Position numbers and translations under genes: made by a program. A stretch of DNA of 64,000 nucleotides. It comes from Eledone cirrhosa (lineage: Eukaryota). Location of the stretch: NCBI GenBank assembly GCA_964016885.1, contig OZ024741.1, forward strand, positions 50,716,001-50,780,000, given 5' to 3'. Below, in pieces: positions 5,063-58,890 of the stretch (position 1 is the stretch's first letter; every line of letters starts with the position of its first letter). Under the pieces are notes generated by a model. The model worked only from the letters and a program-made list of their open reading frames with translations, did no database searches and was not told the origin of the DNA.

Positions 5063-5518
5063 AAAATACAATATGTTGAAAAGGTAACACACTAGAGAGA
5101 GATAGTGCGTCATCAATAAAACAGGGAAAACCACCAGTGTATGGAATGTATAATCTATGGAAGGCAGGGTAGACACACAATAATTAAAAATATAAATTAA
5201 AATGTATATACGCACCTCTATAACTATATAACACACGCGTACAAATGTACGCGTGTGTTATTGTACGCGTGTGTTATATAGTTATAGAGGTGCGTATATT
5301 CATTTTAATTTATATTTTTAATTATTGTGTGTCTACCCTGCCTTCCATAGATTATAGATTCCATACACTGGTGGTTTTCCCTGTTTTATTGATGGCGCAC
5401 TATCTCTCTGGTGTGTTATTTTTTCCACATATTGTATTTTAAAGAGCTCGGGATTCCTTTTCCTTTGAGCACATTATTGACAGGGAATAACGAGAGTCTA
5501 TGGCTCCGTTAATTTATC

Positions 5519-5520
<2 letters not shown>
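5063..5520. repeat. Foldback insertion with ~180-bp inverted arms between (TA)n tracts
   Basis: 5063-5243 is the near-perfect reverse complement of 5261-5440, with a short duplicated spacer at the centre. Confidence 0.85.
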
Positions 5521-5597
<77 letters not shown>

Positions 5598-5600
<3 letters not shown>

Positions 5601-6277
5601 ATAATAATAAATTTGAAGACTAAAATCCAAAGAGGGCTCGATAAGGATAAATTATATATCAGATATATAAGAACCGTAGAGCAAATATTTATTAAAATAA
5701 CAGATTAAAGTTTAAGCAAAGAATCGCTGCTTTCACCCTTAACGGGATCTTCTGAAACTAAAAAAGTCAATCTGTAAACGCAGAAGTAAATATTTCAAAA
5801 AACGTTGCAACCGAAGGAAGACAGGAAGACGATACTTTGGTTCGTGGAAACGTTCCTTGGCAAAGAACGGAAAAAACGAAGATAATACATCATTATTTGG
5901 TGCGGCGAAAACAATTACACGCAAAGACAAAACCATGTTTATGGTATAAATGAAGTCGTAGACTAATATTCTATTAGGTGGTTCATGGAGACGTTCTCTG
6001 GCAATGAACGAAAAAAACGAAGATAATACGTCATTATGTGGAGCACTGAGAACAATTACACGCAAAGACAAACTTTAATCTGTTATTTTAATAAATATCT
6101 ATATATATATTGTTATACTTGGGGAGGGTCATATTTGTGTAATAATATTGCCAGAATTAATAACAGAACACACTCACTGTTTGGTTGGTTTTCGCTTCTG
6201 TATCTTTTAATTTATTCGGTCCTCAATGTTACCATTGACTTACCAACGGTTAAAAATACAGATATAATTCATCGCCG

Positions 6278-6365
<88 letters not shown>

Positions 6366-7261
6366 TAAAATAACAGATTAAAGTTTAAGCAAAGAATCGC
6401 TGCTTTCACCCTTAACGGGATCTTCTGAAACTAACAAAGTCAATCTGTAAACGCAGAACTGGATATTTCAAAAAACGTTGCAACCGGAGGAAGACAGGAA
6501 GACGATACTTTGGTTCATGGTGACGTTCGCTGGCAAAGAACGGGAAAAAACGAATAATACGTCATTAATAGGAGCGGTGAAAAACAATTACGTGCAAGGA
6601 CAGAACCACGTTTATGGTATAAAAGAGGTCGTAGACTAATGTTCTCTAAGTGGTGCATAGAGACGTTCTCTGGCAATGAACGAAAAAACGAAGATAATAA
6701 GTCATATGTGGAGCGTGGAGAACAATAGCGTGCAAAGACAAAACCACGTAAATGGTATAGCAGAAGTCGTAGACTAAAATTCTAACTAGGAGACCGAATG
6801 AATCTCCGCTACAGAGTTAGGTGTGTGTATATGTGTATTTCTTGTTTTAGTTGACTTACGTCTCCGAACCTTCATGTATTTATTTGTAGGTATGTGTGTG
6901 CGCTTGTTATATACGTATTTATTTACTTATATACGTTTATATAATTATTTATTTATTTGTACACAAGCATACACACATACACATATTTATATGTGCGTGG
7001 TTTTGTATACCTATGGTAAGGTTATGCGTATGCTTGTGTATGTACGTATCTGTTTGCGTGTATGTATTTATTTGTTCCTATTACTTCTGTATTGTATTTA
7101 TTTGTTTTGTTCTTAACTCTGTAGCGGAGATTCATTCGGTCTCCTAGTTAGAATTTTAGTCTACGACTTCTGCTAATATTTGCTCTTCGGTTCTTATATA
7201 TTTGATATATATTTTCCTTATCGAGCCCTCTCTGGATTTTAGTCTTCAATTTTATTATTAT

Positions 7262-7264
<3 letters not shown>
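5598..7264. mobile_element. Two adjacent non-coding PLE-like terminal insertions (family C) with inverted arms and an internal ~141-bp tandem repeat
   Basis: 5598-6069 and 6359-6790 are diverged direct copies. 6069-6098, 7114-7173 and 7175-7264 are inverted copies. All outer ends abut (TA)n, and the same terminus recurs at 35575-35670. PLE identity is inferred from architecture only. Confidence 0.6.
6107..6280 (-). mobile_element. Mini insertion of PLE family A' terminus
   Basis: Matches 14135-14300, and ends in TAATTCATCGCCG as at 16293-16305; flanked by (TA)n. Confidence 0.85.
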
Positions 7265-7318
<54 letters not shown>

Positions 7319-7331
7319 TACATATATATAT

Positions 7332-7545
7332 ATGTAAAAGGTAAACAGAAATAACAACACAATCGGTACAGTATATGGAAGGGATATATTAGGTTAACGC
7401 TTGATATAGCAGGAAGTGGGTCTTAACGTTTCGGACGCTAGACTTTCATCAGAAGAAAGAATAAGAAATAAGATAGATTGAAAGGACGGGTGGGATGGAA
7501 TTTGAAAAAAAAATGTCTTTAGATAAAAATAACAGGTCCATTCAT
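7332..7545 (-). mobile_element. Solo PLE pseudo-LTR (family B) with HHR motif at 7421-7456
   Basis: Homologous to 38340-38536. Minus strand reads TCTT CTGATGA [weak stem II] GAAA CG TT AAGA. Abuts (TA)n. Confidence 0.7.
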
Positions 7546-8031: not shown

Positions 8032-8158
<127 letters not shown>

Positions 8159-8366
8159 CGTTTCTGAATTTGTTTAGCAAGATTCTTTATCTGAAAACGT
8201 GTGTTGAAACCGATATTGTTATACTTTGGGAGGGTCATGTTGCCAATAAGAAACACACGCACCAGTTGCTTTCACTTCAATTTATTATAATAAATTTATA
8301 AATTTAGGAATTTATAAATTTCTGGTTGGTTGGTTGGTTCCACAACCAGATAGTTGTTTATATATT

Positions 8367-8409
8367 GTCAAAGTTCTTTCGTCACACATTCTGTGACCTC
8401 TTCAGTGAC
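8367..8409 (-). ncRNA. Minimal type I hammerhead ribozyme (family A)
   Basis: GTCA CTGAAGA G GTCACA-GAATG-TGTGAC GAAA GAAC TT TGAC. Confidence 0.8.
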
Positions 8410-11400
8410 TGGGGATTCTTTTCTTTGTTTTTGTGCCTCTCCTTTGTTCTGTCCTACGCCATTTTGTTTCTGTGTGTCTGTTGTGTGCTCAGTCTGCGCA
8501 TGCGCCACATCCGGATGTCTGTGTGTGTTTATATTCGTTTATTTATTTGTTTATTTACATGTTACCGGTTGGTTGTTTGTTCTATGTGCGTGTGTGTTTT
8601 CATTCTGTCCTTAATTGTAAGTTGTGATGTTGCTGTTCCACTCATATTTTCTATTTAATTTTGGTTGTAATTCTTTTATGTTTATTGCCTCTGTGATTTG
8701 TCTAAACATTGCGTCTTTTCTGTGTGTAGATTCTATTTTTATTTCTATGTTCTCTAATTTACTCTTATGTTCTATTTTAGCATGTTGGTAGAGTACAGAT
8801 GATTCTTTACTATCTTGAAGGTCTCGCCAGTGTTCATTTATCCGTTCCCCTACACTACGAGCTGTCTCACCTATGTACACTATATTTTTGTCTCTACATT
8901 GTCCTTCAGTACATCTTATGCTATATACTACATTTCTAGTTTTACAGTTAATATGGGGGCTTATTTTACAGGTTATACATTTCTTATCTATACAGGGGGG
9001 TCTTTGAAAAGGGTATGCCTTGCTAATAAGTGTTTTTACGGAGGTACCTGGTCTTTCTACTATCTTAATATATGAGTTTATGTTTATCTAGGGCCCTTCT
9101 AAATTTGTAAGCTAATTCAGCTCTAGGGGTTGTATCGATGAACATTACACTCTGGTATTTATTGCTATCATACCATGAGTTTATTCTATTAGCCTTATTC
9201 CTAGTTCTTTCTATTCTATTCCAAAATTTGCTCCTATACAAGGGGCAGGTCCCATTTGTGTCATTATTTACCATTTTTTCCCATTTGGTTCTGGCTCCTC
9301 TATACACTCTGCATACGGTGGATGAAGTGTTGTATGTGTCTCTCTAATTCTTCGGGGTTGCACATGCGGGACACGTTTCTCATCACCCGTACCAAATCCG
9401 AAATCAGTATGTTGATTTTGGTATGGTCCGAAACAGCTGAGTTTCGGTGGATCAGATGTTTGGAAGTCATGGGTTTGGCATAATGGGAATGGAGGATTTG
9501 TTTTTTGTTATTAATGGTATCTAACCAGAGCTCTGTGTCTAGTAAGGTAATCGATGGTTGGGGTGTTTACTTGGGTAGTCTATAGTAACTCTAATACTCT
9601 GGTGGATGGAGTTAGCTATTTGCTGGAGGCTTTCCATTGTGTTTTTCTCTAGTTGCTGACTGTTCTCTAGTGGGGGTGTCTTAACTACGATGTTTATATC
9701 ATCAACGTAGCGGGAGTACATTATCAGGGTTAAGAGGTCTTCTAATTGTTCTTTAATTTTAAGTTTAAGTCTACTGTCCCACCATACCATGAATAAGTTA
9801 GCTATGTCGCCAGCAATGCTAACACCAATGGCTGCTCCTTCTTCTTGGGCATATGTTTTTCCATTAAATTTGAACATATGTTCCTTGAGGGTTAGTTTTA
9901 TGCTGGCCCCTACCGCATGTGCAATCATTTTCTTCAGTTCATCGTGGTTTTAGGGTGTCCGTATGGCTCTGGTCCACCCGTTCCATCTATCTGTGTGGGT
10001 TTTCTTGGCCATTGAGGTAATGGTAGGTGGTCTGCTTCTTGCTGGTCTTGTAGGGCACAGGTTGCTAAGGTCATATGTGTCTAGGTAATTATTACTATAG
10101 GTAAGTTTAAGTAGGAGTCCCAGCTCACTGGTATCAGTCCAACGGAACTCAACATTGCTCTCACTGATCATTTCTACGCATTTCTCCACAGCAAAATCCA
10201 CGTCAATAGATGGATACAGGGACACAACATCCATACTACCTATTATGCAGTTTGTTAGGTCCCTAGATCGGTTACTCTCGCCGATTCTGCTGAGGAGGTC
10301 CTCCGTGCTGTCACATACATCTGGGGACATTTCAATGATGGGGCGTATGATCAGGGAGAGGAAGTAGGACAGTCTGTAGTTACTAGCAATGTTAGCTCCA
10401 CAGACTGGCCGTGTTGGTGGTCCCGTGACAGGGTCACTGCCCGTTTTATGGTCTTTTCGAAGCCCATACAACGCCGGCACGTCATTGTTCCAGGCCTGGA
10501 AGTTGTTGAACAGTCCTTTTGTTGGGCTGCATTATATTCGTCCACATCACCATATGGACATTGAGGGCTTTTTCTCTATCCTCATGCTCCTGTCGTGTTA
10601 CCTCTCTTGTGTTAGTGATGTGGGGTTGCATTGCCTGGATGTAGTTTGGCAGGCTGTCAACCGACATTCTGCCAGACTTGTCTGTTGGAAAGCATGCTAT
10701 CTCTCCATTACGCGAGCGCTGCATGAGCTTACGCAAGCCATTTGCAGATTTTTCTCCCAGTTGCTGGGCCTCCATTCTATTATGCTTCTTGCTATACTGT
10801 TCTATAATATTTCTAAGTTCGGATCTAGCTAAACTAAATTGTGCTTCTGTTTGTTCATCGACCTGCGACGGCAATTGCGTGCGTTTGTTAAATGGTAAAG
10901 TCGTGGCGTGGACTCGTCGCAGGTCGAACGACTTATCGGAGGGATTATAAAAAGTAGAGTTCCAGGCTGCTGCTTTATGTGTACTAGTGCTATTGTTATT
11001 GTTAGTTGTGTTGTTTCTATTTCTATTTCCACCAACAGCCTCATGGTTGTTTCTATGTCTCTCATTATTACTCCTGTCTCTTTCCACTGGCTCATTGTTA
11101 TTATCTACTCTATTTTGTGTGTCTGTGTGTTCGTCTTGGTTATTTTCTTTGTCCATAGTCTCCCTTCTCCTTTTAATCCTATTACTTTCCCTTATTTCTG
11201 TGATTTCTGTGCTACTGTCATTACTTGTTTTCTGTGTCTGTGTGTTTGTTAAGATTGTGGTGGTGGTGAGAGGCATTGAATGTGTGTGTGTTGTTGTTGT
11301 TGATGTGTGCTGTTGTTGATATGTGTTGTTGTTGTTGTCTCCGTGTGTGTTATTATTGTTGTGTGTTGTTATTGTTGTTTGTGTCTGCGTGTCTGTTGTT

Positions 11401-12404
11401 GTTGTTTCTGAGTATGTTATTATTGTTGGTGTGTGTGTTGTTGTTATTGTTGTTTGTGTCTGTGTGTCTGTTGTTGTTGGGATGTGTGTTGTATATGTGT
11501 GTGCGTATGTTATTACTTTTGTTTTTGTTTTTGTTTTTGAGGCTCCAACGTAGTTTTGTAAATGATTTTTCTATTTCTGACAGACAACTAATCACATTTA
11601 CCTTCTTGAATGTCGCAAATTTCGGCGGTAGTTGTAATACAGATAATTCATCAGGATCTATTGCCGTGTTGCCGTATATATTTGTGTTGTTGTTGTTGTT
11701 GTTGAACTCATCTGTTAATGAGGTGTCGGCCATATTTATACCGTCAATTTTGTTGCGATATGTATTGGTATTCTCTACAGTATCCTGATTTAGTTTTATC
11801 TGCTTAAGCCACTTTAGTTTCTTGTTAAAGTGCTTATCACATTCTTGAGCAATGTACTGTTCTTCAGGACGTATAAGGCTTATAAATATTAGTTTTTCTC
11901 TTGGTGTGGTGATCCTAGTTATTTCTTGTATTAGGTTACGCTTATGTTTTTCTTGATGACTTAATTCTCTATAGATCTTCTTTTTTATGTTTAGAATTAG
12001 TGTTCGTTTTAGCCTATCTGCTTGCTTTTCGGTGAGTTGTAATCTTCTTACATCGGTGTTGATGGTGTTGGTGTAAACTCGGGACGAGGCATATTCTTTT
12101 ATGAAGTGTAGTTGTCGAGATGTTATTGTTTTTCGTAGACAACAGAACATGGTGGTTTTCAGTATCTTGTTAGCCTGGCTAAGGCTTACGATATTTCGTT
12201 TCTGAATTTGTTTAGCAAGATTCTTTATCTGAAAACGTGTGTTGAAACCGATATTGTTATACTTTGGGAGGGTCATGTTGCCAATAAGAAACACACGCAC
12301 CAGTTGCTTTCACTTCAATTTATTATAATAAATTTATAAATTTAGGAATTTATAAATTTCTGGTTGGTTGGTTGGTTCCACAACCAGATAGTTGTTTATA
12401 TATT

Positions 12405-12447
12405 GTCAAAGTTCTTTCGTCACACATTCTGTGACCACTTCAGTGAC
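12405..12447 (-). ncRNA. Hammerhead copy in the 5' pseudo-LTR, core mutated (CTGAAGT)
   Basis: Same as 8367-8409 apart from one core substitution. Confidence 0.7.
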
Positions 12448-14004
12448 TGGGGATTCTTTTCTTTGTTTTTGTGCCTCTCCTTTGTTCTGTCCTACGCCAT
12501 TTTGTTTCTGTGTGTGTGTTGTGTGCTCAGTCTGCGCATGCGCCACATCCGGGGTCTGTGTGTGTTTATATTCGTTTATTTATTTGTTTATTTACATGTT
12601 ACCGGTTGGTTGCTTGTTCTATGTGCGTGTGTGTTTTCATTCTGTCCTTAATTGTAAGTTGTGATGTTGCTGTTCCACTTATATTTTCTATTTAATTTTT
12701 GTTGTAATTCTTTTATGTTTATTGCCTCTGTGATTTGTCTAAACATTGCGTCTTTTCTGTGTGTAGATTCTATTTTTATTTCTATGTTCTCTAATTTACC
12801 CTTATGTTCTATTTTAGCATGTTGGTAGAGTACAGATGATTCTTTACTATCTTGAAGGTCTCGCCAGTGTTCATTTATCTGTTCCCCTACACTACGAGCT
12901 GTCTCACCTATGTACACTATATTTTTGTCTCTACATTGTCCTTCAGTACATCTTATGCTATATACTACATTTCTAGTTTTACAGTTAATATGGGGGCTTA
13001 TTTTACAGGTTATTCATTTCTTATCTATACAGGGGGGTCTTTGAAAAGGGTATGCCTTGCTAATAAGTGTTTTTACGGAGGTACCTGGTCTTTCTACTAT
13101 CTTAATATTGAGTTTATGTTTATCTAGGGCCCTTCTAAATTTGTAAGCTAATTCAGCTCTAGGGGTTGTATCGATGAACATTACACTCTGGTATTTATTG
13201 CTATCATACCATGAGTTTATTCTATTAGCCTTATTCCTAGTTCTTTCTATTCTATTCCAAAATTTGCTCCTATACAAGGGGCAGGTCCCATTTGTGTCAT
13301 TATTTACCATTTTTTCCCATTTGGTTCTGGCTCCTCTATACACTCTGATTTTATCTCTCTGATTGTAACCAGAGAACTGCATACAGTGGATGAAGTGTTG
13401 TATGTGTCTCTCTAGTTCTTCGGGGTTGCACATGCGGGACACGTTTCTCATCACCCGTACCAAATCCAAATGAAATAGCTCGAAGAAAGACTATTCTGAG
13501 CCGTGTAATATAGGTTAACACACTGCTCCTTCGTTGAGCTGATTTTAGCCCCATACAAACGGCTGTTATTTCTAGCAGCACGAGTATGTGGCTAGCTAGA
13601 CACTGGATAACCGTATGAGGTTACCTCGTGCGCTAAACAGTCTTCCTAAATATTTTGAAGTGGAACATACCAATTTTGATAGTGCTTGCTGAGGAGATCA
13701 AAATGCGGTATTTTCTTCCACTTTTTCATTATTCGAAACATATTTGGATTTTAAGGTTTAAACCTGTCTACGGAACAGGTTTGATTTTGAAATTTAAATT
13801 TGTCCAAGCACTACGGCCATTGCCAATACAATTTGTTTTTGTTGATTTATGATATATTATCTTAAGTCATGATAGGCAAACTGTAATATTATTATTAGTA
13901 TATTTCTATCTAGCTAACTTGGTCATTTACAATACAAACATAAATATGAGGATATTTGTGTTTATCAAATATATTGATTTGTGTTAACCTATATTATGTA
14001 TATA

Positions 14005-14133: not shown

Positions 14134-14334
14134 ATGGGGAGGGTCATATTTGCGTAATATTGCCAGAATTAATAACAGAACACACTCACTGTTTGGTTGG
14201 TTTTCGCTTCTCGCTGTCTTTTATATATATATATCTGCGATCTAACTTACTCGGTCCTCAATGTTGCCATTGACTGACCGGCGGTCAAAAATAATACAGA
14301 TACAATATAGACAAACACATATATATATAGTTTA

Positions 14335-14374
14335 CATAAATCTTTCGTTGCACATCTGCAACATCGTCAGTGGT
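14335..14374 (-). ncRNA. Minimal hammerhead ribozyme (family A')
   Basis: CA CTGACGA T GTTGCA-GATG-TGCAAC GAAA GATT TA TG; stem I is short. Confidence 0.7.
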
Positions 14375-14644
14375 GTTATATTCATTGTTCCTCCTGTTGT
14401 GTTGTATGTCTACGCCATTTTTTTTTTGTTCAGTCTGTCTATATATTTATTTATTTATTTGCTTGTTTGTTTATCTTATTTTATTTTATTTTGTCTTCTT
14501 TGCGCATGCGTTTGCGTGTGTGTATAGTGTGTGATGTGTGACTAGTGTGTATAGTGTTGTGTCTGCTGGGTGACTAGTGTGTGTTTATGTGCTTGTGTAT
14601 GTATTTATTTATCTTATTTTATTTAATTTAATTTACTTATTTAT

Positions 14645-16246
14645 TTATACTTCTCTTAGGTCAGTGTTGTTTGTTTGGGTGTTGTTGTTGTTCCACTCAT
14701 TCTTTCTGTTTAGCTTTGGTCTTCTAATTTCTATTTCACTGGCCTCTCTGATTTGCCTATCTGCTGGGTCATTCCTATGTTTAGATATTATTCTAATTTC
14801 TATGTTGTCTATGTTACCGTCATGATGTTGTCTAGCATGTTCGTATAGTACTGACCCGTTTTTTCGTCCTTTTAGTTCCCCCCAGTGTTGGTCTATCCTT
14901 TCACCTATGCTACGAGCTGTCTCACCTACGTATGTTGTTGTCGTGTTTCTGCAAGTACCCTCTGTACATCTTATGCTATAGACTACGTTTCTAGTTTTAC
15001 AGTTTATCCGGGGGTTCACCTTACATATGATACATTTCCTATTGGTACAGTGGGTTTTCTTAAAAGGGTAGGTTTTGCTGATCAGGGATTTTATGGTGGT
15101 TCCTGGCTTTTCTACCACCTTTATTTTTAAGTGGGTCTTTCTCAGGGCCTTTCTACACTGGTTAGCTAATTTCCCTCCAGGGGTGGCGTCCACAAACATG
15201 ACACTCTGATATCTCTGGTTGTCGTACCATGATGTGGCCTTCCCTATCTTATGTCTAGCCCTATCTAAGCTATTCCATGATTTGCTCCTGTATAGTGGGC
15301 AAATTCCTTTCATGTCCAGTTCTATGAGGGTCTTATACTTTTCCATGGCTCCTTCGTATACTCTGACTCTGTCTCTTTGGTTGTAGCCAGAGAACTGCAT
15401 GCGGTTGATGAAGTGTTGGATGTGTCCTTCCATTTCTGTTGGGTCGCACATGCTGGACACATTCTTCATCACTCGTACCAAATCTGCGATCAGAATATTA
15501 AACTTAGCACTACTGGACATTGCTGAGTTTTTGAGTATCAGGTATTTGGAGGCCATGGGTTTAGCATAGTGTGAGTGGAGAATTTGGGCTCTCTCGTCTA
15601 TAGTGTTAATCCAGAGTTCTGTGTCTAATACAGGTAGTCTATTGTTAGGGTGTTTGGAAGGGAAGTCTATAGTTACAGTTATACTCTGGTGTATGGAATT
15701 AGCTATCTGCTGGATGCTTTCCATCGTGCTACGTTCTAAATCAAACTTGTTAGTGCTCTCTAGTGGGGGTGTTCTTATAACTATATTGATATCGTCTACA
15801 TAACGAGAGTACATGATGAGGTCTATGGAGCTTTCATTAAGGAGATCTTTAAGTCTCCTTTCCCACCATACCATGAAAAGGTTGGCAACATCGCCAGCTA
15901 TGCTGACGCCGATGGCTGCTCCCTCATTTTGGGTGTAGATTTTCTCATTGAACTTAAATATGTGGCCCTTTAGGGTAGTTTTGATACTAGCCCCTATTGC
16001 ATGTGCGACCATTTTTCTTACCTGATCAGTGTTTTGGGGGGTCCGTATAGCTTTGGTCCACCCAATCCACCTTCCTATGGGAGTCTTTTTAGCCATTGAG
16101 GTTATGGTGGGGGGTCTACCTCTTATAGGTCTACTAGGGCAGAAACATCTAAGGTCATGGCTGTCTAGGTAGTCAGTGTCGTAGGTAAGTCTAAGTAGGA
16201 GGCCCAGTTCGTCTGTGTCGACGTCGCAGAACTCCACCTCACTCTC
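14645..16246 (-). pseudogene. PLE RT C-terminal half + GIY-YIG endonuclease, uninterrupted ~530 codons
   Basis: 542-aa ORF in the track; its first ~9 residues come from the inverted segment. Confidence 0.92.
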
Positions 16247-16522
16247 AATATCTGTTTCGACACACGATTTCATATAAAAAACCTCGCAAAACTAATTCAT
16301 CGCCGCTATATATATATATATATATATATAATGTTTTATATAGAAATGGCTTCTACAGGACTAGAACTGTTTCACTTAAGAGAAATCATCAGGAAAGGGC
16401 TTTCCTGATATATGATGTTTACACTCTACTAATGTATTGAGTACCTTACTAATTGTGGTTACTCCCGATTGAACCCAGAACTCTCAAACATTCTCTCTCT
16501 CTGTCTCTCTCTCTCTCACACA

Positions 16523-17672: not shown

Positions 17673-17717
17673 TCATTAGTGCGAACTATCAAAGTAAAGT
17701 GGTAACTGTATAATAAT

Positions 17718-17907
17718 TGTTTCTACATTTGGCACAAGGCCAGCAATTATCCCAGTACATCACTGGTACTTTATTTTATCGACCCAGTAAGGATGAAAAG
17801 AAAAGTTAACCTCAGCGGGATTTGAACTCAGACCATAAAGGCCCGTAACGCATTGCTGCAAAGCATGGCGTCCGACCCTCTACCGATACCGCCAATCCAC
17901 CGCCCCT
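17718..17907 (-). mobile_element. tRNA-derived SINE (Nin/Deu-like central domain)
   Basis: B box GAGTTCAAATCCC, central CTTTTCATCCTTAC.GGGTCGATAAAATAAAGTACCAG; imperfect TSD TGT(A/G)TAATAAT. Confidence 0.85.
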
Positions 17908-18090
17908 TGTGTAATAATACAATATATTAGGTAAGAACTATTTTGGGTAAAACCAATGTACCTCCGAATCAGGGTAAAGTGGTAAAGTGTAATAATACAA
18001 TATATTAGGTAAGAACCATTTTGGGTAAAACCAATGTACCTCCTAATCAAGGTAAAGTGGTATCTGTGTAACAATACAATATATTAGGTA
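17908..18090. repeat. ~78-bp tandem repeat, about 2.3 copies
   Basis: GTAA(T/C)AATACAATATATTAGG at 17911, 17989 and 18068. Confidence 0.9.
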
Positions 18091-19808: not shown

Positions 19809-19982
19809 AGGCGGCTTGCGATAGAGCGTCAGACACCATGATTTGCAGCATAGTTATGGCCCTTTGCGTTCTGAGTTCAAATCCGCCGAGGTTAACTTTG
19901 CCTTTCATCCTTACGTGGTCGATAAAATAAAGTACCAGTGATGCACTGGGGTAATCGCTGGCCTTGTGCCAAAAGTAGAAAC
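19809..19982 (+). mobile_element. tRNA-derived SINE
   Basis: Same family as 17718-17907. Confidence 0.8.
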
Positions 19983-20310: not shown

Positions 20311-20340
20311 TGTTCTGTGTATGAACGTAAATAAATAATT

Positions 20341-20496
20341 GTCTCTACTTTAGGCACAAGGCCAGCAATTATCCAGTGCATTACTGGTACATTATTTTAT
20401 CGACCCCGTAAGGATGAAAGGCAAAGTCAACCTCGGCGGGATTTGAACTCAGATCGTAAAGGGAGGTAACTATGCTGGAAAGCATAGCGTCCGACA
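20341..20496 (-). mobile_element. tRNA-derived SINE, 5'-truncated
   Basis: Same family as 17718-17907. Confidence 0.8.
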
Positions 20497-20771: not shown

Positions 20772-20779
<8 letters not shown>

Positions 20780-21074
20780 AAGAAAAAAACATAGAATATT
20801 CGAAAATATTCTGTATGTTTATAATAAACATTTTGAAGACCTAATCGCTATAGAATAGAATACGTCACGTATTACAATTTGAGATTCTCGATAAAAGCAA
20901 GGGAAGTAACCTACGCGTTTCATTCTTATTAGAAATCATCAGGATTACATATCCAATGCTTTTATCGAGAATGAGCGATTAGGCCTTCAAAATGTTTATT
21001 ATAAACATACAGAATATTTTCGAATATTCTATGTTTTTCTTCACATATATATCGCTATTTCAGAGCATTAAATC

Positions 21075-21078
<4 letters not shown>
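20772..21078. mobile_element. Small HHR-bearing foldback element in (TA)n; HHR at 20906-20948 on the minus strand
   Basis: 20772-20849 is inverted at 20973-21050. HHR reads GTAATC CTGATGA TTTCT-AATA-AGAAT GAAA CGCG TA GGTTAC. Confidence 0.8.
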
Positions 21079-21132
<54 letters not shown>

Positions 21133-21970: not shown

Positions 21971-22154
21971 TTAAGGCGGTGGATTGGCAGTATCGATTGA
22001 GAGTCAGACACCATGCTTTGCAGCATGGAGGTATGGTCCTTTACGGTCTGAGTTCAAATCCCGCCGAGGTTAACATCCTTACGGAGTCGATAAAAAAGCA
22101 CCAGTAACGTACTGGGGTTGATTTAATCCACTTTCCCCTCCTCCAAATTACCAA
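21971..22154 (+). mobile_element. tRNA-derived SINE with 16-bp TSD
   Basis: TSD TCATTATTTGTCTTCA at 21955 and 22155. Confidence 0.9.
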
Positions 22155-23683: not shown

Positions 23684-23689
<6 letters not shown>

Positions 23690-25118
23690 CGTTTATGAAT
23701 TTGTTTAGCAAGATTCTTTATCTGAAAACGTGTGCTGAAACCGATATTGTTATACTTTGGGAGGGTCATGTTGCCAATAAGAAACACACGCAAAAAAACA
23801 GATCCTCCATTCCCATTATGCCAAGCCCACGACTTCCAAATATCTGATCCACCGAAACTCAGCTGTTTCGGACCGCACCAAAATCAACATACTGATTGCG
23901 AATTTGGAACGGGTGATGAGAAATGTGTCCCGCATGTGCAACCCCAAAGAACTAGAGAGACACATACAACACTTCATCCACCGTATGCAGTTTTCTGGTT
24001 ACAATCAGAGAGATAAGATCAGAGTATATAGAGGAGCCAGAACCAAATGGGAAAAAATGGTAAATAATGATACAAATGGGACCTGCCCCTTGTATAGGAG
24101 CAAATTTTGGAATAGAATAGAAAGAACTAGGAATAAGGTTAATAGAATAAACTCATGGTATGATAGCAATAAATACCAGAGTGTAATGTTCATCAATACA
24201 ACCCCAAGAGGTGAATTAGCTTACAAATTCAGAAGGGCCCTAGATAAACATAAACTCATATATTAAGATAGTAGAAAGACCAGGTACCTCCATAAAAACA
24301 CTTATTAGCAATACATACCCTTTTCAAAGACCTCCCTGTATAGATAAGAAATGTATAATCTGTAAACTAAGTCCCCATATCAACTGTAAAACTAGAAATG
24401 TAGTATATAGCATAAGATGTACTGAAGGACAATGTAGAGATAAGAATATAGTGTACATAGGTGAGACAGCTCGTAGTATAGGAGAACGGATAAATGAACA
24501 CTGGCGAGAGCTTCAAGATAGTAAAGAATCATCTGTACTCTACCAACATGCTAAAATAGAACATAAGGGTAAATTAGAGAACATAGAAATAAAAATAGAA
24601 TCTACACGCAGAAAAGACGCAATGTTTAGACAAATCACAGAGGCAATAAACATAAATGAACTCAAACCCAAATTAAATAGAAAGCATGAATGGAACAGTA
24701 ACATCACAACTTACAATTAAGGACAAAATGAAAACACACACGCACATAGAACAAACAACCAACCAGTAACATGTAAATAAACAAATAAATAAACAAATAT
24801 AAACACACACAGACACCTGCATGTAACACATGCGCAAACTAAGCACACAACACACACAAAAATAAGATGGCGAAGGACAGAACAAAGGAGAGGCACAAAA
24901 ACAAAGAAAAGAATCCCCAGTCACTGAAGAGGTCGCAGAATGTGTGACGAAAGAACTTTGACAATATATGAACAATCGTCTGGTTGTGGAACCAACCAAC
25001 CAACCGGAAATTTATAAATTCCTAAATTTATAAATTTAATTTATAATAAATTGAAGTGAAAGCAACTGGTGCGTGTGTTTCTTATTGGCAACATGACCCT
25101 CCCTAAGTATAACAATAT
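23684..25118 (+). mobile_element. PLE family A, 5'-truncated, with inverted terminal arm (23684-23791 minus, 23791-25118 plus); HHR at 24920-24962
   Basis: Highly similar to 8153-9510; GIY-YIG ORF at 24451-24720; both ends in (TA)n. Confidence 0.93.
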
Positions 25119-29704: not shown

Positions 29705-30341
29705 TTCTGGTTTTATAATTTCACAATTTTTTCCCCAATATAGAGAGAGTCGGTTTCTAACATAGACACAAGACTCTCTCATTGGAATTTACACAGCTAG
29801 GTAGATTATGTATGCATGCACGCATGTGTGGATATGGATGTTATTGTATGTGTGGATGTGTATGTTTTGAGTTGTATGTGTGCATATGTATATGCTTTGT
29901 ATCTGTACATGTCTATATGCAGTTATTAGATTCAACATTTTTGGAATGATTTACATATTTTTACTGTTCCATTAATGGATTGTACTTGTAATTTCGTAAC
30001 TAGTTGTGTTCTTCCTGTTCCCGTGAAGCCTAGCTTCTCAAGATTTGTATTGAGGCAGTTACTAACATATCCCAGTGCCCCAATAATCACAGGCATAAAT
30101 CTGAAGGTGCAATCAGGGTGGAGTATCTGCAGATTTCTCATCAGTTCTGCATAAATATTCTCCTTTTCGCTAATCTTTGATATTATATTGGCATCTGCTG
30201 GGCAGCTAATTTCCACTACTGTGCATGCTTTCTTCTCCCATATCATAATATCTGGTCTGTTATGCCTGCATTTTGTTGGGGTTTTTACTGGAACATTCCA
30301 CCAGTACTCTTTCATATAATGTACATGGATGTCTTCCACAT
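29705..30341 (-). mobile_element. 5'-truncated copy of the first R4/Dong family (REL domain + complete 3' UTR)
   Basis: 29873-30341 closely matches 1-472; ORF 29932-30339; (TGTA)n on both sides. Confidence 0.93.
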
Positions 30342-30416
30342 GTATGTATGTGTGTATGTATGTATGTATGTATGTATGTATGTATGTATGTATGTATGTA
30401 TGTATGTATGTATGTA

Positions 30417-33400
30417 TTATCTTTTTCTCTTAATTTCGAGTATATTTTTTTTGACCGGCCACCTTCCTGGTGGCAAGGTTGTAAAAGAAAAGAAATTGTC
30501 ATCCCTTGAATCGCAAGAATGTTTTGCAAATTTTGAAGGTGCCAGCTATCGCAGCCATTTGTAGACTATGAATTAGGGAGCTGCGCTTTTTGTCCGCAAA
30601 TCCAAGTTCAGTCATACTTTGGTCCAAGCGGGTTGGTATATAACCCGTAGCTCCAATAATGATGGGTATGAAGCTAAAGGTGTATACTGGATGTGTAAAC
30701 TCCTCATCAATGGTCCGTAGATGTCCTCCTTCTCCTGTATTTTTCTGACAACGTTTACATCAATTGGGCAGCTGATCTCCACAACAGAACACGTTTTCAA
30801 TGTGTGGTCCCAAACAACAATATCAGGCCGGTTGTGCTTTAATTTGGTGGCAGTTTTTATTTTCAGGTTCCACCAGTATTCCTTAGTGCCATCTGTCTCA
30901 ATATATTCTTCCTCGTTTGTTGTTAATTTTGTTTTCCGAAGTGCGTTCCAGATGGTTCTAGCTATCCCATCGTGTCCCATGGGGAGGTAGTAGCGAGATG
31001 ACATTCTTTCGCATTTGGCAACAATGTGGCTTACATCCTCGATCTTTGTTTTATATAGCCTACATTTATTGTCAGCTGCTGGCCCTCCTCTTTTGTGCAG
31101 CAGATATTTGGTAGGGAGTTCTTGTTCCTGTATTGCATAGAGATATCCCTCAAGGTGTGATGTCATAAACTTGTCGGAACTCCATGCCAGGCTTTTTGAG
31201 TGGTTTATCCCCTCTATGGTCTGTGTTTTACGCCTCAAGTATCCATGCACAACTTTTTCTGTAAATTGGTCAATTTTTTTTATCTTGTTTGAACATTGAA
31301 TAGGATCTTCCAATTTCTCTGGGTGAGAGATTTATATCACGCTTTATTCCATAACTCTCCTCCAGATCAGTCGCTATTCTAATGATATTTTTTTTTTCAT
31401 GCTCATAAACCTGGGTAAGATGGTTGCCAACCTTTTTCCTCTGTTGAAGGTGTTGCTTCAGTGTTACTATTCGGGTCTCATATGTTGTTGATATTGATTT
31501 TAGACCCCGGCCACCTTCCTTGCGTGAGAAGTATAGCCTATCCACATCACCATTGATGTTAAAATTCCCAGTAACACTGAGAAGTTTTCGAGTTCTAACA
31601 TCCATCTCACTTAGTTCTTGCAATGACCAGTTCAGCAGGCCAAATGTTGGCGTTAGAATTGGCACAGCATAAGTATTGTGGGCAATGTATTTGTTGTACG
31701 CTGACAGTTCTGATGACCATATTTTCTTTACTCTTCTGAGGTATTCAGTTCTGGTTCTCTCCTTATTTATGGGTCCATCATATCTGACATTCTCATCCTG
31801 TCCAAGATATCTGTAGTTGTCACCTGACTGTAGAGGTTGTATTGTCAGGCCGTTCATCTCTAGATTTCTAGAGGAGGGCACATCTTTTCCATGTTTTACT
31901 GCCAAATATGCACACTTGGACTCACCAAATTTCATTTTGATGTCGGTTGAAAATTGTGTAATGAGATCCAATTGTTTCTTGATGTCATTGATATTTGGCC
32001 CATACAACTTCAGGTCATCAACAAAGAAAAGATGGGAGATACTTCTGGGCCCACTTCTTTGTCCACCTTGTTTCCTGAGTAGGTAAGATAGTGGATTCAG
32101 TGAGAGAACGAAGAGTAGCACTGACAAGCTATCACTCTGAAAGATGCCCTTCTGGTAATGTATCTTATCAGTCTTAACTTGCTCCTTCTCACCTCTAAGG
32201 ATCAAATTGGTGTACCAGTTCTTGGTCAGGCGTTCAACAGCAGCTACAAATGGTTGTGGGACTTTAGCTAACTGTAAAGCCTTAATAATCCACCCATGAG
32301 GTACACTATCAAATGCTTTTTGATAGTCCAGCCACACCACAGTTATGTTTCTGCGATTCTTTGTTGTTTTTTCCTGAATCATTTTGTTAGTTAGTAGGTG
32401 ATCTATGCAACCCCACACCTCCCTCTTTCCACCAGCTTGCTCAGGTGTTATGATGTTGTTGGTAGCACAGTGATCCTGTAAGAACAGGTTAAGGCACCCA
32501 GTATATAATTTATACATGATGTTTTGGCAGGCTATTGGGCGGTAATTTTTAGCAAGGGTGGTTTGGCTATTTTTGGGAATGAGGAGAGTAGTGGCAGTTG
32601 ATAACCATCTGGGCAGTTCTTGTGTGCCTTTAATGGTTTCTGTAAAGAGCCGTATGAGATCTTGCCGATAGAAAGTGAAATTCTTCAACCAGTATCCTGT
32701 AATGAGGTCTGGCCTTGGCGATTTCCTATTCGACATTTTCTGTAGAGCTGTTTCCAGTATTGACCCATCTCTGTCATATTGTTTTGTCTGGACATGTTGG
32801 CAGTAGTCCTGTTCCAGTTCTTTTAGCCAATTAGTTTGTCTGTTGAATCCGTCATCCGTTTCCCATACAGATCTCCAGTAGCTCTCAACCTGTTCTTTTG
32901 AAGGGGTGTCATTTAAAGGGATTGAGCTTTTGCCACCGAAGCTGCGATAAACTGATTTAGGATCTCTGGCAAACAATCTATTTAGCACTTGTCGTTTATG
33001 TGCTGTTGACTTATATTTTAGTCTTTCTGTTGTAGCTGTGAGTTGTTGTTTAACTGGTGTAATTTGGAGTTCAAAGTTTTAAATTTTGTATCTCCAAATC
33101 GTCTCTCTAACTTTTTGTTTAGGTCTTCCTGGTGTCGTGTGAAGCTGCTCTCTATGTTGCATTTCATAACGACTGCGATGTGTGAGATACTTCGTCTCAG
33201 GGACAACATTTTGCTTTTTAAATTTCGCATCCACGCTGGTTCAGGCTTTCTGTTTGTATCTTGATTGCGTGGTTTTAGATGTGTGTTATATGATAGCAAT
33301 GTGACAGCTGAAACATATAACAAAATATTAAGAGTTTCAAATGTCGTTTCTACACCTTTAGATCGTATAGCCTTCAGATAATTGCTAGCTATTTCGTTCA

Positions 33401-34646
33401 CCGCTTTCAATTCCAATTTAGTGGGTTCTTTACTGATTCTGGTGTTGTATGGTCTGTCAACAACATTAAGGTTGTGTATCTCTTGAAACATATCGTTCCA
33501 TATCACTTGTAGGGTGTCCACAAGTTTTTGGTGCTCTGTTTGTTCAGTAGAGTCATGAATTTCAGCCTTCGTGTTGATGTGGTGACAATTACTACTAGAG
33601 TAAGCTGACTTTTCTCGCTGTTCTTCAGTGGAAGTGGGATGGATTTCAGCAAAATTGTTGGTGAGCTGTTCACTGTTAGATTTAGCTGGCCATTCTCTTT
33701 GTCTGTCAGTGGAGGTGGGGTGGTTGTCTACAAGGGCTGTATTTGTAGTATCACTCAATTCCGTTAGATGTATCAATTTACATCTAATGATACGTTTTGC
33801 CTGTTCATTTAAATGCTTTGGAGAAAAGTCTAATTCTAGGTGTTTGGAGTTCCATAAAGTTTTTAGCCTTTGCATAAAACCGAACTTTTGGGGTTCAGAT
33901 TGTTTGTATACTTCATATAATACTTTGTTAAGCTCGTAGCTCCACTGTATACAGCGGTTGTAGTTGCGATTTGGTCGAAGAAGACTTTTACTTTTTGCCA
34001 CGATGAGTTCGTCTATTCACTAATATTTCGTATTTATTTTTCAAAATAGTCGATGATCTTCTTTAAAAGTTTCGACAAAGTTCTGTCAGAATCAAATTTA
34101 AAGTTATTCACAGCTTGGGTAATATTTCTTTTCAGTTAGTTTTTAATTCTACAACTGTGTTTTAAACGTTGTTCTTGAATCGTTTGAATCGAGAACAAAA
34201 AGAACCGTTACTTAGTATATTTCTTTATGAATGTAATATTTCTTTATGAATGTAATAACAACGCTGTATTTATATGTTAAAGTTTATGTATCATTCATAT
34301 AAATAGGTGTTCTACAACTTATTCACAACATATTCACAGTTCAAACACTTATGTTTTTGTTTCTGAATCGAAAACGTTACTTGTATATTTCTTTATAAAT
34401 GTAATATAACAACGTTGCATTTATATGTTAAAGTGTATGTATCGTTCATATATCATAAGTGTATGTATCGTTCATATAAATAGGTGTTTTACAACACACT
34501 TACAGTTCAAACACTTATGTAGAATTATTGTATGTAATCTTACTGCGTAATGTAGCTCAACTTTTTCCAATATATGGTATGTTGCCTTCATGTAAGCCGT
34601 AATTACACACGTCCGATTATTGGACACTGACCACAACGGTCGCCAG
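30417..34646 (-). mobile_element. Second R4/Dong family, full length (~4.2 kb), few frameshifts
   Basis: ORFs 34001-33018, 32988-31270 (RT: WLDYQKAFDSV, FVDDLK) and 31313-30612 (knuckle, RPDIV, EISCP). The 5' UTR has a ~170-bp tandem duplication at about 34205-34520. (TGTA)n on both sides. Confidence 0.95.
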
Positions 34647-35574: not shown

Positions 35575-35670
35575 GTAATAATAATAAATTTGAAGACTAA
35601 AATCCAAAGAGGGCTCGATAAGGATAAATATATATCAAATATATAAGAACCGTAGAGCAAATATTTATTA
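35575..35670 (-). mobile_element. Family C terminal fragment
   Basis: Matches 5598-5694; abuts (TA)n. Confidence 0.85.
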
Positions 35671-35887: not shown

Positions 35888-37678
35888 CAGGGTAAAGCCA
35901 ACATTTGGCCGTAACGGACTGCTTTTTATAGTAGCACGCAACCTGCCAATGTCCACCTTACTACCCCCCTGTTGATTACATATCACGTGATAATTCTTCC
36001 ATTTGTAATTTATACTGATATATATAATTATATACTTACCAAGCGACAATGAATTATACACAGAGATCCCGGACATGACTGCAGCCCAGATCGAAAAACA
36101 GACCAACTCCATCTGGTTCGATATCTGTAGGAGAAGACAACTCCCAAATAAAGTTAAGCTCAACTACACCACTAGAAATAGCAGACTGCCCACTTTCTAC
36201 CACCTCATCAAGACCCACAAGAATAGCACTAATACGCAAATAAGACCCATCGTCTCTAGCATAGAAGGACCCCTATACAAAATTTCCTGGTTCCTCTCCC
36301 AGATCCTCAAGCCTCTACTCTCCACCTTTCCCGGGCATGTCAGTAGCTCCGACGAAGTTATACGTAGACTACACCAACTCCAGCCAGAACAACTTAAACT
36401 AAATAAATATGCTTTTAGCCTCGACGTTGTCTCCCCGTCTACACTACAGTCCCCGCTCATCCAGCTGTCGATTTATTGACGGACTGCGTGGTAGCAGAGG
36501 ACATCCACTGCTACGGCCTCCACCCGACGGACATACACCAGCTTTTGTCCTTCACAGTAGACAACACGTACTTCACCTTCCACCACCACACATACAGACA
36601 GACAACAGGATTACCCATGGGACCCAGCCTATCAGGCCTGCTGGCCATCACCTACATGAACCAGCTAGAATGCCGAGCCCTCAACACCTGCCATTCCCAT
36701 ACCTTCTTCACCCGATATGTAGATGACATACTCATCCTTACATCATCCCGTGAGGAGGCAGATAAAATATACACAACATTCTCCAGCATGGACGCCAGTA
36801 TAAAGTTCAGCATGGAACACCCCGATGACCGCGGATCCCTATCCCTACTGGACTTCCATCTCAGGGTAACAGAGGAAGGCAACATCCACACCTGCTTCTA
36901 TAAAAAAGCTGCCAGCAGGGACCTGTTCGTACATTTCAGATCGGCCCTCCCACTCGGTGCCAAGTTCGGATACATAAGGAACAAACTGGCACGTATCCGG
37001 AACAAATGCACCGACGCTAGAGACCGAGACACACACACCACACATTTCCTGGAAGTACTCAAACTGAACGGATACACGACATCCACCACAAACCGTGCCA
37101 GAAAGAACAGAGGACATCACACCCGAGGCACTAACACTTGCTTCCTGAAGCTCCCACACTTCAGTAAAGAAACAACAACAGCCATCTGCAGAGCTATCAG
37201 ACGAGAGGGACTAGATATCCAACTGGCCCACTCAGGTCCTTCTCTACGCGGTCAGCTAACCAAAAGACACTCCACCAGACATGACAACTGCTGCAGACTA
37301 GCCAACTGCCCCATCAACGACACAGACCTATGCCACCAGGCTTACGTCGTATACAGACTAGAGTGTGACAAATGCAACAACTTCTACGTAGGTAGCACCA
37401 CCAGACCACTCCACATAAGAATAAAAGAACACCTCAATACTAACGCTTCCTCATTTAAGAAACACCTAGCTAGTTAAATGCAAAAACACCGACAAAACCA
37501 TAACAGTTAGGATAGAAACTAAGGAAAGAAACCTCGGCAATCTTAGAATTAAGGAAGCACTAATTATAGACAAAACACAACCACCAATTAATAATAGACT
37601 AGAACTCAACACCCAATTTATAACTTGATAGAGCTCCTAGCCCCATATTTACACCCCCCCCCCCCCCCACACACGCAC

Positions 37679-37710
<32 letters not shown>

Positions 37711-38242
37711 GCTTACACCTCCCCTTATTCTCTCTCACACATACACACACAAAACCAGTTCTAACACGAGATAACATCTATCCCCCACATTTACGTATAG
37801 ACATATCTTCTCACACTCACACACACACTCACATACTTACACCTTCATGCCTTCTCCCACACACTTAAACAGGCATGTATAAAAAACAAACAAAAAACAA
37901 TAACAAACCCCTCTTAAAGGGAGACTACTCTTTATCCACCTAATCTTAACTCTTTGACATTAGAGATAGAACAGATACTCTATACCATTTCCTGTCAGCA
38001 TAACTTGGCAGGCTTTTTAGAACACTGGTTTGACAGCTTTACTTCCCTCTGAAGAAGAGATATTATCTCGAAAATTTAGGACATTTAAATAAATCTAAGG
38101 TAAAAGACTAATTGTCAACAATATCTTTTGCATTTGCATTCTTTATTCTATGTCCATACCTGCATTGTTTTGGCTTTATTATACATATACAAACGTTTAT
38201 ACCTCATTACACAATGCTTCAAGTGAACTATAACCTCCTCCA
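35888..38242 (+). mobile_element. 5'-truncated PLE (Nematis/Poseidon-like, family D); HHR at 38046-38080
   Basis: ORFs 36075-36479 and 36476-37477 contain FYHLIKTHK, IRPIVS, SLDVVS, GLPMGPSLS, RYVDD and VVY.LEC..C..FYVGST.R....R..EH. HHR reads CCT CTGAAGA A GAGAT-ATT-ATCTC GAAA AT TT AGG. (TA)n flanks. Confidence 0.9.
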
Positions 38243-38268: not shown

Positions 38269-38339
<71 letters not shown>

Positions 38340-38344
<5 letters not shown>

Positions 38345-38863
38345 AAAGGTAAACAGAAATAACACAATCGTTACAGTATATGGAAGGAATATATTAGGTT
38401 AACCCTTGATATAGCATGAAGAGAGTCTTAACGTTTCGGATGCAAGTTCTTCATCAGAAGAAATAAGATAGATTGAGGGAACGGGCGGGTTGGAATTCGA
38501 AGAAATGTCTTTAGATAAAAATAACAGGTCCATTCACTTTGACATCTCTTGCAAAACTGTTGGTGCTGGCGTTTTGTGTATGATTTACTTTTTAGAAAAG
38601 TGGATGATGGAGTGCATTTACCTGAAATGGAAAAACAAATCGTTTTGTAAAAATACTTGTGCACACTCTTTTACTCTTTTACCTGTTCCAGCCAGGTCAA
38701 AATTAACTTAGTTTATTCATATTCGGTGTTATATATATTTCGGTGATAACCATTATTCAACAGCTATGACGTCATCAGACAACTAGAACTTGAACAGAAA
38801 AAACAGAAAAACATAATGATGGAACAAAGTTTACCTCAGTTATTTCGATCTTTTGATATGCCC

Positions 38864-39271: not shown

Positions 39272-39273
<2 letters not shown>

Positions 39274-39975
39274 TAGGATTGGTGCTCTGAAATAGCGATG
39301 TATACATGAATGTATGCACAGTATATTTGGTAATATACTGTATGTTTAATTAAAAACATTTTGAAGACCTTGCGTTATTATTTTAAAGTAGTGACTATGT
39401 CATTTACTTCTTTTTTCAGGAAAGGAGAGAAGCTGACAGATCTGTTTCACACTGTTGGTGTTCCCCAGAGCAACGTACTCGCCGACCTCTGCCGAAAATT
39501 ATAGAGGCTGGATTCTTATAGAATTCCAGTTATAATCAGAAACTGATTATACAGAGCGATTGCCTGTCCAGCGAAATATAAAATTAGGATTGGTGCTCTG
39601 AAATAGCGATGTATACATGAATGTATGTATGGTATATTTGGTAATATACTGCATGTTTAATTAAAACGTTTTTCAGAGCATCAATCCTAATTTTTAATTT
39701 TTGCTGGACCGGCAATCGCTCTGTATAATCAGTTCCTGATTATAACTGGAATTCTATAAGAATCCAGCCTCTATAATTTTCGGCAGAGGTCGGCCAGTAC
39801 GTTGCTCTGAGGAACACCAACAGTGTGAAACAAATCTGTCAGCTTCTCTCCCTTCCTTTGTTGAACAAAGAAGTAATTGACATAGTCACTACTTTAAAAT
39901 AATAGCGCAAGGTCTTCAAAATGTTTTAATTAAACATACAGTATATTACCAAATATACTATGCATACATTCATAT
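39272..39975. mobile_element. Retrozyme-like ~309-nt HHR monomer: 1.3 tandem copies (minus) plus one permuted inverted copy (plus)
   Basis: 39272-39360 repeats at 39583-39670; 39672-39972 is the reverse complement and spans the monomer junction; no ORF. Confidence 0.8.
39804..39843 (+). ncRNA. Hammerhead ribozyme with GUC site (mutated copy at 39431-39470, minus)
   Basis: GCT CTGAGGA ACAC-CAACA-GTGT GAAA CA(A/G)ATCTG TC AGC. Confidence 0.85.
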
Positions 39976-50545: not shown

Positions 50546-50559
50546 AGTAGTCAATATAA

Positions 50560-58862: not shown

Positions 58863-58890
58863 GAATAATTGCCTTATGTTGTTTATTACA

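Follow-up and report, generated by a model that had tools for sequence, protein, structure and literature searches.

INTRODUCTION

Copies of Penelope-like elements (PLEs) are described as having an inverted 5′-truncated copy and a tail of 30–40 bp, often at one end only, and as being inserted in (TA)n targets (PMC8557442), and hammerhead motifs occur in their pseudo-LTRs (pLTRs) (PMC4209133). In the rotifer element Pen2a, an inverted internal piece lies beside the pLTR, for which self-priming and template jumps were proposed (PMC3846280). The PLE protein Poseidon of the lizard Anolis carolinensis (PAc) nicks and extends both strands in vitro, and two internal starts of reverse transcription (RT) downstream of the hammerhead bound the PAc tail; a dimer was predicted, uncut RNA was used, cleavage was dispensable in vitro, and no RNA reads were found to end at the cut (PMC11167929). 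For LINE-1, twin and dual priming have been described, in which primers on opposite strands yield two inverted truncated fragments (PMC2837659). The route by which inverted, tailed PLE insertions arise and the role of the hammerhead are both stated to be open questions in two of these papers (PMC8557442, PMC11167929).

Here we analysed a 64-kb stretch of Eledone cirrhosa DNA (the window), in which microsatellites and fragments of RT and GIY-YIG sequence abound, and which contains three copies of a repeat designated family C. A first-pass annotation had ascribed to this family two fixed ends, a and b, tiled by two inverted arms. The account that we favour, and regard as likely, is that a PLE 3′ end was inserted into TA microsatellites by two RT events starting from two fixed RNA sites.

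RESULTS

Family C copies have fixed ends against TA tracts

The similarity among the three copies is not a matter of chance (BLAST E-values 1e-37 to 1e-139), and no fourth copy was found within the 64-kb window by nhmmer --max or by a pattern search that matched both expected sites (2/2). The features of the three copies are as follows.

5520–5597, no strand: target tract (TA)39 on the left side of copy 1 (TRF)
5598–6072, minus (inferred RNA sense): copy 1 long arm, outer end at a, crossing b and the hammerhead-like motif and truncated in tandem unit 2; 348/390 identical to the copy 2 long arm
5598–5688, minus: tail between a and b (87–91 nt), ATG-free in copy 1, the copies differing by 1-nt indels
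5703–5772, minus: type I hammerhead-like motif of copy 1, C3 at 5754, predicted cut between 5714 and 5713
5834–6072, minus: about 1.7 tandem units of ~140 nt, copy 1
6070–6098, plus: short arm of copy 1, inverted, with its outer end at b; 29/29 identical to the reverse complement of 5685–5713
6099–6109, no strand: C(TA)5 spacer, followed by an unrelated family-B PLE fragment (about 6110–6277)
6279–6357, no strand: TA target tract left of copy 2 (TRF)
6358–7113, minus: copy 2 long arm, outer end at b (6358–6361, ambiguous with the flank), 5′-truncated at ~7113
6376–6445, minus: hammerhead-like motif of copy 2, C3 at 6427, predicted cut between 6387 and 6386
6507–6784, minus: about two ~140-nt tandem units, copy 2 (TRF period 138)
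6758–6819, minus: source of the extra block of copy 2
6820–7113, minus: A/C-rich segment (A 49%, A+C 67%), in composition style like the neighbouring PLE 3′ UTRs (A+C 73–77%)
7114–7175, plus: extra inverted block at the copy 2 joint; 62/62 identical to the reverse complement of 6758–6819
7175–7264, plus: copy 2 inverted arm, i.e. the tail, outer end at a and inner end at b
7265–7333, no strand: TA target tract right of copy 2 (TRF)
35575–35670, minus: copy 3, a solo tail from a to 4–9 nt beyond b (5692–5694), with TA on both sides

At site a all three copies stop at one identical base (5598, 7264 and 35575), each abutting (TA)n, and at site b both b-ends (6098 and 6358–6361) fall inside one 4-nt ATAT window, 5685–5688 in copy 1 coordinates, an ‘exact’ b-end thus meaning one placed to within 4 nt, with the ATAT common to the TA flank and the element. 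Both sites lie where the first-pass annotation had put them. Six out of six outer ends adjoin TA runs, inside which target-site duplications are unreadable, and the primed ends of the family within the window number five. In copy 1 coordinates, a (5598) and b (5685–5688) are followed by a conserved block extending to ~5833 and then by the ~140-nt tandem units.

Two of the three copies are two-armed, their inner ends all being different, and in both of these the tail sits at one end; it also occurs solo, as copy 3. In copy 1, the long arm passes through b and the 29-nt short arm repeats 5685–5713, so that the arms overlap; at 6070–6072 they have AAA in common (3-nt microhomology). In copy 2, the long arm starts at b and has no tail, and the tail is provided by the inverted a-arm (7175–7264), which goes back to 5688–5689 and abuts the long arm. 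The tiling earlier reported for 6359–7264 was thus recovered, and the sites are indeed swapped in 5598–6098, but the arms there overlap by 29 nt instead of tiling; similarly, the solo copy at 35575–35670 starts at a as annotated but extends 4–9 nt beyond b rather than spanning only a to b, and the extra inverted block is present at the joint but measures 62 bp (7114–7175 versus 6758–6819), not 60 bp (7114–7173 versus 6759–6820).

The copy 1 tail and the copy 2 a-arm are identical at 86/92 positions, and their matches to the solo copy 3 are 90/92 and 87/91. The long arms of copies 1 and 2 are direct repeats 11% apart with TA and another element between them, and from the sequence are read as separate insertions; the two copies belong to a cluster of separate insertions in one TA region, with the family-B fragment lying between. 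At 87–91 nt, the family C tail does not match the 30–40 bp that are typical, though not strict, for PLEs. A coding tail was rejected, as the three translated segments contain no ATG and the copies differ by 1-nt indels, and a 111-aa frame at 5739–6074 had no Pfam match.

A hammerhead-like motif lies upstream of both sites

The hammerhead core consists of C3 U4 G5 A6 N7 G8 A9 and G12 A13 A14 A15.1, with the cut after U16.1-H17. In a whole-window scan, both long copies of family C proved to carry on the minus strand a motif shaped like a type I hammerhead, in which A replaces U4 (U4A) in 2/2 copies and every other core base is present; by this one deviation, the A at position 4, the motif falls outside the canonical type I core. 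The core numbering was partly checked against PMC3088659 (section 8). Stems I, II and III comprise 5+6, 3 and 5 bp, the 6 bp being an extension of stem I, with 19/19 standard pairs, and stem II is closed by a U10.1-U11.1 mismatch, which occurs in natural hammerhead ribozymes (PMC3088659). The motif is upstream of both sites, its predicted cut being 26–29 nt from b and 116 nt from a. The tandem units yielded no hammerhead in our scans, each long copy having one motif outside the units.

Of 1500 dinucleotide shuffles of 5598–6072, none yielded such a motif with stems of this length when a single core deviation was permitted at any position, whereas looser settings gave 2, 17 and 43 of 1500, all thresholds having been fixed after the motif had been seen. 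Between the two long copies, the ribozyme block is more conserved than the tandem units (144/149 versus 204/241 identical positions, Fisher p = 1.5e-4), and 5685–5761 is identical throughout (77/77); the motif stems are likewise identical in both copies, so covariation is unavailable. Rfam gave no matches over the whole window at gathering scores, and its 19 matches at E ≤ 10 over 5500–7300 were all miRNA or RUF21 models on simple repeats, none of them a hammerhead. The hammerhead topology lies 2.5–3 kcal/mol above the MFE structure (−7.1 versus −9.6/−10.2 kcal/mol), and the motif folds no better than shuffles do (z +0.4 and +0.6). The hammerhead-like motif sets the inferred RNA strand and indicates the class of the element; the earlier reading, sound on the two sites, had left out both this motif and the published PLE layout of an inverted copy plus a one-sided tail.

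The inner end of the copy 1 short arm is the first base after the predicted cut (5713), with a 3-nt ambiguity inward, a coincidence seen in a single case (n = 1) and spotted after the fact. Ribozyme cleavage is a credible though somewhat doubtful explanation of where this arm ends. For comparison, the closest counterpart, a family-E arm (20957), begins ~12 nt short of its own predicted cut. Isolated canonical-core hammerhead motifs were also located at 58813–58896 (+), with long stems (I 7 bp, II 11 bp), and at 16330–16392 (−), each separated by a few tens of bases from a TA tract downstream.

Family C resembles a PLE 3′ end in its architecture

Read on the minus strand, family C runs through the A/C-rich segment, the tandem units, the ribozyme motif, b and a, with the fixed ends 3′ and the variable ends 5′, which by our comparison is how a PLE pseudo-LTR and tail are laid out. 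Two of the three copies display 5′ truncation with an adjacent inverted truncated copy, a trait of EN+ PLEs, and the AT-rich or microsatellite targeting of these elements is found as well. No ORF is attached to any copy, in up to 755 nt, and an autonomous partner, which the first-pass annotation had suggested searching for, produced no candidate in the 64-kb window, where blastn and nhmmer matched only the three copies. Alignments of family C with the neighbouring pLTRs were all non-significant (6/6, the score being reached by 53–667 of 1000 shuffles). With no ORF, no partner in the window and no significant pLTR similarity, PLE membership is thus deduced from the architecture, on which basis family C very probably represents the 3′ end (pseudo-LTR plus tail) of a Penelope-like retrotransposon, without protein-coding sequence. 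GTDB genomes, when scanned for exact 24-nt matches, yielded 0, a result of little weight for an animal repeat.

Several other assignments were rejected. A 9-mer shared with family E was discarded as a sign of homology, the alignments being non-significant. A PLE at about 36009–38242 (+), which adjoins copy 3, carries RT and GIY-YIG sequence and a minimal hammerhead at 38049 and ends in TA, but it has a different ribozyme and no similarity to family C and was not accepted as its partner. A tRNA-SINE head was dismissed, with no tRNA detected in the window by ARAGORN. DIRS elements are defined by ITRs together with an internal region that is complementary to both termini (PMC8969392), but the extra block of copy 2 matches the internal 6758–6819, not the termini, and is present in 1/3 copies only.

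A further reading is that family C is a stand-alone non-autonomous element, retrozyme- or SINE-like, which uses a PLE protein and the same insertion mechanism; it partly overlaps the main explanation, and so do the probabilities given to the two. The lack of an ORF in up to 755 nt and the internal ~140-nt tandem units accord with it, and animal retrozymes have been proposed as non-autonomous PLE derivatives (bioRxiv 10.64898/2026.07.22.740005). However, retrozymes have a hammerhead in each tandem unit, while in family C there is a single one for each copy and its units yielded none, and the inner ends vary between copies and the far segment resembles a PLE 3′ UTR. We therefore regard a stand-alone element as unlikely, and a non-autonomous PLE derivative as possible.

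Neighbouring PLE insertions pair one a-end with one b-end

Neighbouring PLE copies, some of which carry RT/GIY-YIG sequence and Cys-rich linkers, have the same layout of one a-end and one b-end as family C (the neighbour labels B, D and E were assigned here, and A and B may not match those of the earlier annotation). Seven two-armed insertions, chosen by eye from the window self-comparison, were tabulated, i.e. copies 1 and 2 of family C, A 23687–25118, B 14135–16306, B 6107–6277, E 20777–21079 and E 39273–39971. All seven have one tail-bearing (a) and one tail-less (b) end, an outcome expected once in 128 if the arms chose independently. The arms abut exactly at b in two (copy 2 of family C and B 16246–16306), overlap in four and leave a gap in one, so the rule is one site per strand and not tiling, and the two-site tiling proposed earlier does not stand as a general layout, exact abutment being confined to those 2/7. 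One family-B end lies ~11 nt short of b.

Tail lengths in the window are 35–36 nt (E), 61 nt (A), ~78 nt (5442–5519) and 87–91 nt (C). Family A is a PLE present at 8156–12515, 23687–25118 and 61472–61795, with a partial tandem, RT and GIY-YIG fragments and minimal hammerheads (C3 at 8405, 24924 and 61723), and its sites a and b are 61 nt apart within the first ORF codons. Family B (14135–16306 and 6107–6277) is a PLE ~70% identical to A in the ORF; its 16246–16306 arm has its outer end at a and its inner end exactly at b, and the small copy that separates copies 1 and 2 of family C is closed by a 13-nt a-arm. For the element at 14645–16291, the best of 114 protein matches comes from Octopus vulgaris (a predicted protein; 66% identity, E = 1e-208), and both this element and family A have before the endonuclease a CX4CX2C linker, which is given for the Neptune and Nematis clades (PMC8557442).

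Family E comprises two related non-coding two-armed insertions (20777–21079 and 39273–39971; score above that of 1000/1000 shuffles) with canonical-core hammerheads (C3 at 20942 minus and 39807 plus) and one-ended 35–36 nt tails, i.e. textbook PLE ends. At 5064–5519, a 376-bp near-perfect palindrome (5064–5439, 92.6%) follows a TA run and has a ~78-nt right-arm extension (5442–5519), which reaches the TA tract that precedes copy 1 of family C; this is probably a further two-armed insertion with a long tail, in which motif scans found no hammerhead.

Other repeats in the window

A ~210-bp repeat occurs at 7331–7544 and 38339–38536 (84% identical), each copy beginning right after the TA tract that closes a PLE-type end. 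Non-LTR retrotransposons, both of them broken, occupy 88–2779 (−) and 29874–34016 (−), and one of the two ends beside (TACA)n; they have RT domains by Pfam (E 1e-23 to 1e-24), and their C-terminal motifs resemble what we take to be a restriction-like nuclease. Decayed GIY-YIG-type C-terminal fragments, presumably Neptune-like in their motifs, lie at 41224–41949 (−) and 56192–56509 (+), and the sequence downstream of them has no similarity to family C. A dispersed repeat of ~150–200 bp, SINE-like though without a tRNA by ARAGORN, is present in seven copies that are 74–93% alike.

17711–17928, 19819–19982, 20334–20495, 21972–22149, 50554–50776, 54665–54908 and 63027–63094: copies of the ~150–200 bp dispersed repeat

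Outside the seven-insertion tabulation, an inverted pair of 177 bp (61869–62045 / 62816–62992, 97.7%) bounds ~1.1 kb and may be a MITE or a two-armed insertion; at 57699–57941 there is a weak palindrome, rich in AT.

Probable two-site, two-strand priming on PLE RNA

We consider two-site, two-strand priming on PLE RNA the likely origin of these insertions. A GIY-YIG/RT protein from an autonomous copy outside the window would nick both strands of a TA tract, one nicked strand would prime at a and the other at b, and both cDNAs would end early and be joined head to head with 0–4 nt of microhomology. Copy 2 would then represent twin priming on one RNA, in which the a-primed RT halts where the b-primed hybrid begins. 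For copy 1, the stretch from b to the ribozyme would have to be copied twice, most simply by b-priming with run-off at the ribozyme-cut RNA end (a 5′ tail copy or a second RNA) and by a-priming with read-through of an uncut copy.

Alternatively, a single priming event could have been followed by DNA rearrangement, with the inverted arms produced by self-priming, fold-back or repair synthesis and with a and b as AT-rich microhomology hot spots. Consistent with this are the 4-nt ATAT match of b to the target, the 2-nt TA microhomology through which the solo copy 3 joins its flank near b, the extra block being a perfect local inverted copy as fold-back predicts, and the neighbouring palindrome at 5064–5439. 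However, the longer and better TA runs in the tail (5663–5669 and 5653–5659) were used by 0/5 primed ends, so the sites were not picked by TA homology alone; all tabulated two-armed insertions combine an a-type with a b-type end; both strands are known to be extended by a PLE protein in vitro (PMC11167929); and fold-back of one cDNA cannot give the copy 2 tail, because the long arm of that copy has no tail. A single priming event is thus improbable in our judgement. Under two-strand priming, a and b are probably set by protein or structure, with pairing of at most 4 nt at b. One candidate structure, an 8-bp AU stem joining a and b, was no better than shuffles (z 0.0 and −0.4) and was rejected.

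The extra 62-bp block of copy 2 shares 1 nt with the a-arm, which is the microhomology at its single readable junction. Identity at 62/62 positions would arise by chance with a probability of 3e-5 at the tandem-unit rate (~15% divergence) and of 0.12 at the conserved-block rate; since the block is identical to its source while the units differ by ~15%, it was likely copied within the same insertion, and judging from the sequence it likely arose during or after the insertion of copy 2. Either the a-primed RT would have jumped ~400 nt along the RNA, or the long cDNA would have been copied by fold-back, the odds being about even, and as jump and fold-back give one identical sequence they are indistinguishable. 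The earlier proposal of two-primer synthesis is kept as the best explanation, fitting the lizard PLE in vitro and the 7/7 a/b pairs, but its template jump has no priority over fold-back, which has the same product. A hairpin as the cause of the block ends was rejected (z −0.2 to −1.4).

A more specific version of two-strand priming would take the locus as a record of integration by a complex of two RTs, with one start per strand, in which the copy 1 b-cDNA is a run-off at the U4A-ribozyme cut and the 62-bp block an RT jump over the stretch held by the partner; as a whole, we offer it tentatively and think it rather unlikely.

5598–7264 is not well described as a DNA transposon

The whole of 5598–7264 could also be regarded as one ~1.7-kb MITE-like TIR DNA transposon with a TA target and ~90-bp TIRs, the solo copy being an orphan end, and 5598–5689 and 7264–7175 are indeed inverted, 86/92 identical and both abutting TA. 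But the members of this supposed pair are less alike than either of them is to the solo copy, which lies 30 kb away (90/92 and 87/91), the b-ends against TA tracts and the family-B PLE fragment lie in its interior, the long arms are direct repeats whose 11% difference indicates separate insertions, and the interior has no transposase ORF. Within one insertion, moreover, the ends differ (a versus b) and there are no matched termini, and neither a hammerhead-like motif nor one-sided truncation is a TIR feature. A TIR element is therefore very improbable. That the inverted joints are assembly or chimeric-read artefacts of a microsatellite-rich region, as the 100% identity of the block to its source, the long TA tracts around the joints and an N gap elsewhere in the window might suggest, is scarcely credible, given that the copy 2 a-arm differs from both other tails and so is not a duplicated read, and that the layout recurs in several unrelated families of the window and in the literature.

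DISCUSSION

Inverted truncated copies, one-sided tails, TA targeting and hammerheads have already been published for PLEs (PMC8557442, PMC3846280, PMC4209133), as has a two-site account of the tail (PMC11167929). Family C is mostly explained by this known PLE biology, to which it adds the twists of a long tail (87–91 nt), a U4A core and, in one case, a short arm ending at the predicted cut. A literature search whose scope left out most subscription papers, the early PLE reviews among them, brought up no report of a long tail, of a core with U4A or of an arm that stops at the cut. The one testable lead is the arm that ends at the predicted cut of the variant ribozyme. If short arms accumulate at the predicted cut genome-wide, this would be evidence that the ribozyme processes RNA in vivo and that a U4A core works, and the long tail and TA-flanked ends make the counting of junctions easier. 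If they do not, family C would be one more unannotated PLE end of the ordinary kind, of use in annotating repeats and also a caution that paired tails mimic TIR elements. Were the tentative integration-record reading true, the ribozyme would cut in vivo and cut and uncut pseudo-LTRs would be copied in one event, and the unexplained layout of inverted copy plus tail would become a rule testable by end counts.

Compared with EN+ PLEs (Penelope/Poseidon, Neptune, Nematis and Naiad), family C is alike in its 5′ truncation, head-to-head arm, one-ended tail and microsatellite targets (PMC8557442, PMC3846280), and its type I hammerhead-like motif is placed, near the 3′ end, as is the type I hammerhead of the canonical clades, the Naiads lacking a canonical one. 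It differs in tail length, 87–91 nt against the 30–40 stated, and in that its copies show no ORF and no partial tandem; the tails of Pen2a_Av and PAc, as described, overlap the ORF start, whereas the family C tail has no ATG. Family C also has ~140-nt tandem units upstream of the ribozyme motif, and the motif combines the U4A core with a full stem III, unlike the minimal metazoan form.

Like the animal non-LTR retrozymes, family C is non-coding, probably PLE-related and furnished with tandem repeats, and it has a type I hammerhead-like motif, but in those retrozymes, as described, each tandem unit contains a hammerhead, whereas family C has one per copy, outside the units (bioRxiv 10.64898/2026.07.22.740005). 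With respect to LINE-1, copy 2 fits one RNA as in twin priming, and copy 1 would involve two templates, as in dual priming, or two tail copies; in the LINE-1 scheme priming takes place first on poly(A) and then at an internal site (PMC2837659), whereas family C lacks poly(A), both of its sites are fixed, and the long arm may come from either.

There are close parallels with PAc, in which two RT starts downstream of the hammerhead bound the tail, both target strands are nicked and extended, and long cDNAs pass through an uncut ribozyme (PMC11167929), as would also be the case in family C. The PAc starts lie in an AC-rich stem-loop without homology to the target, whereas those of family C are rich in AU, with b matching TA over 4 nt; and while no PAc reads ended at the ribozyme cut (PMC11167929), one arm of family C ends at the predicted cut.
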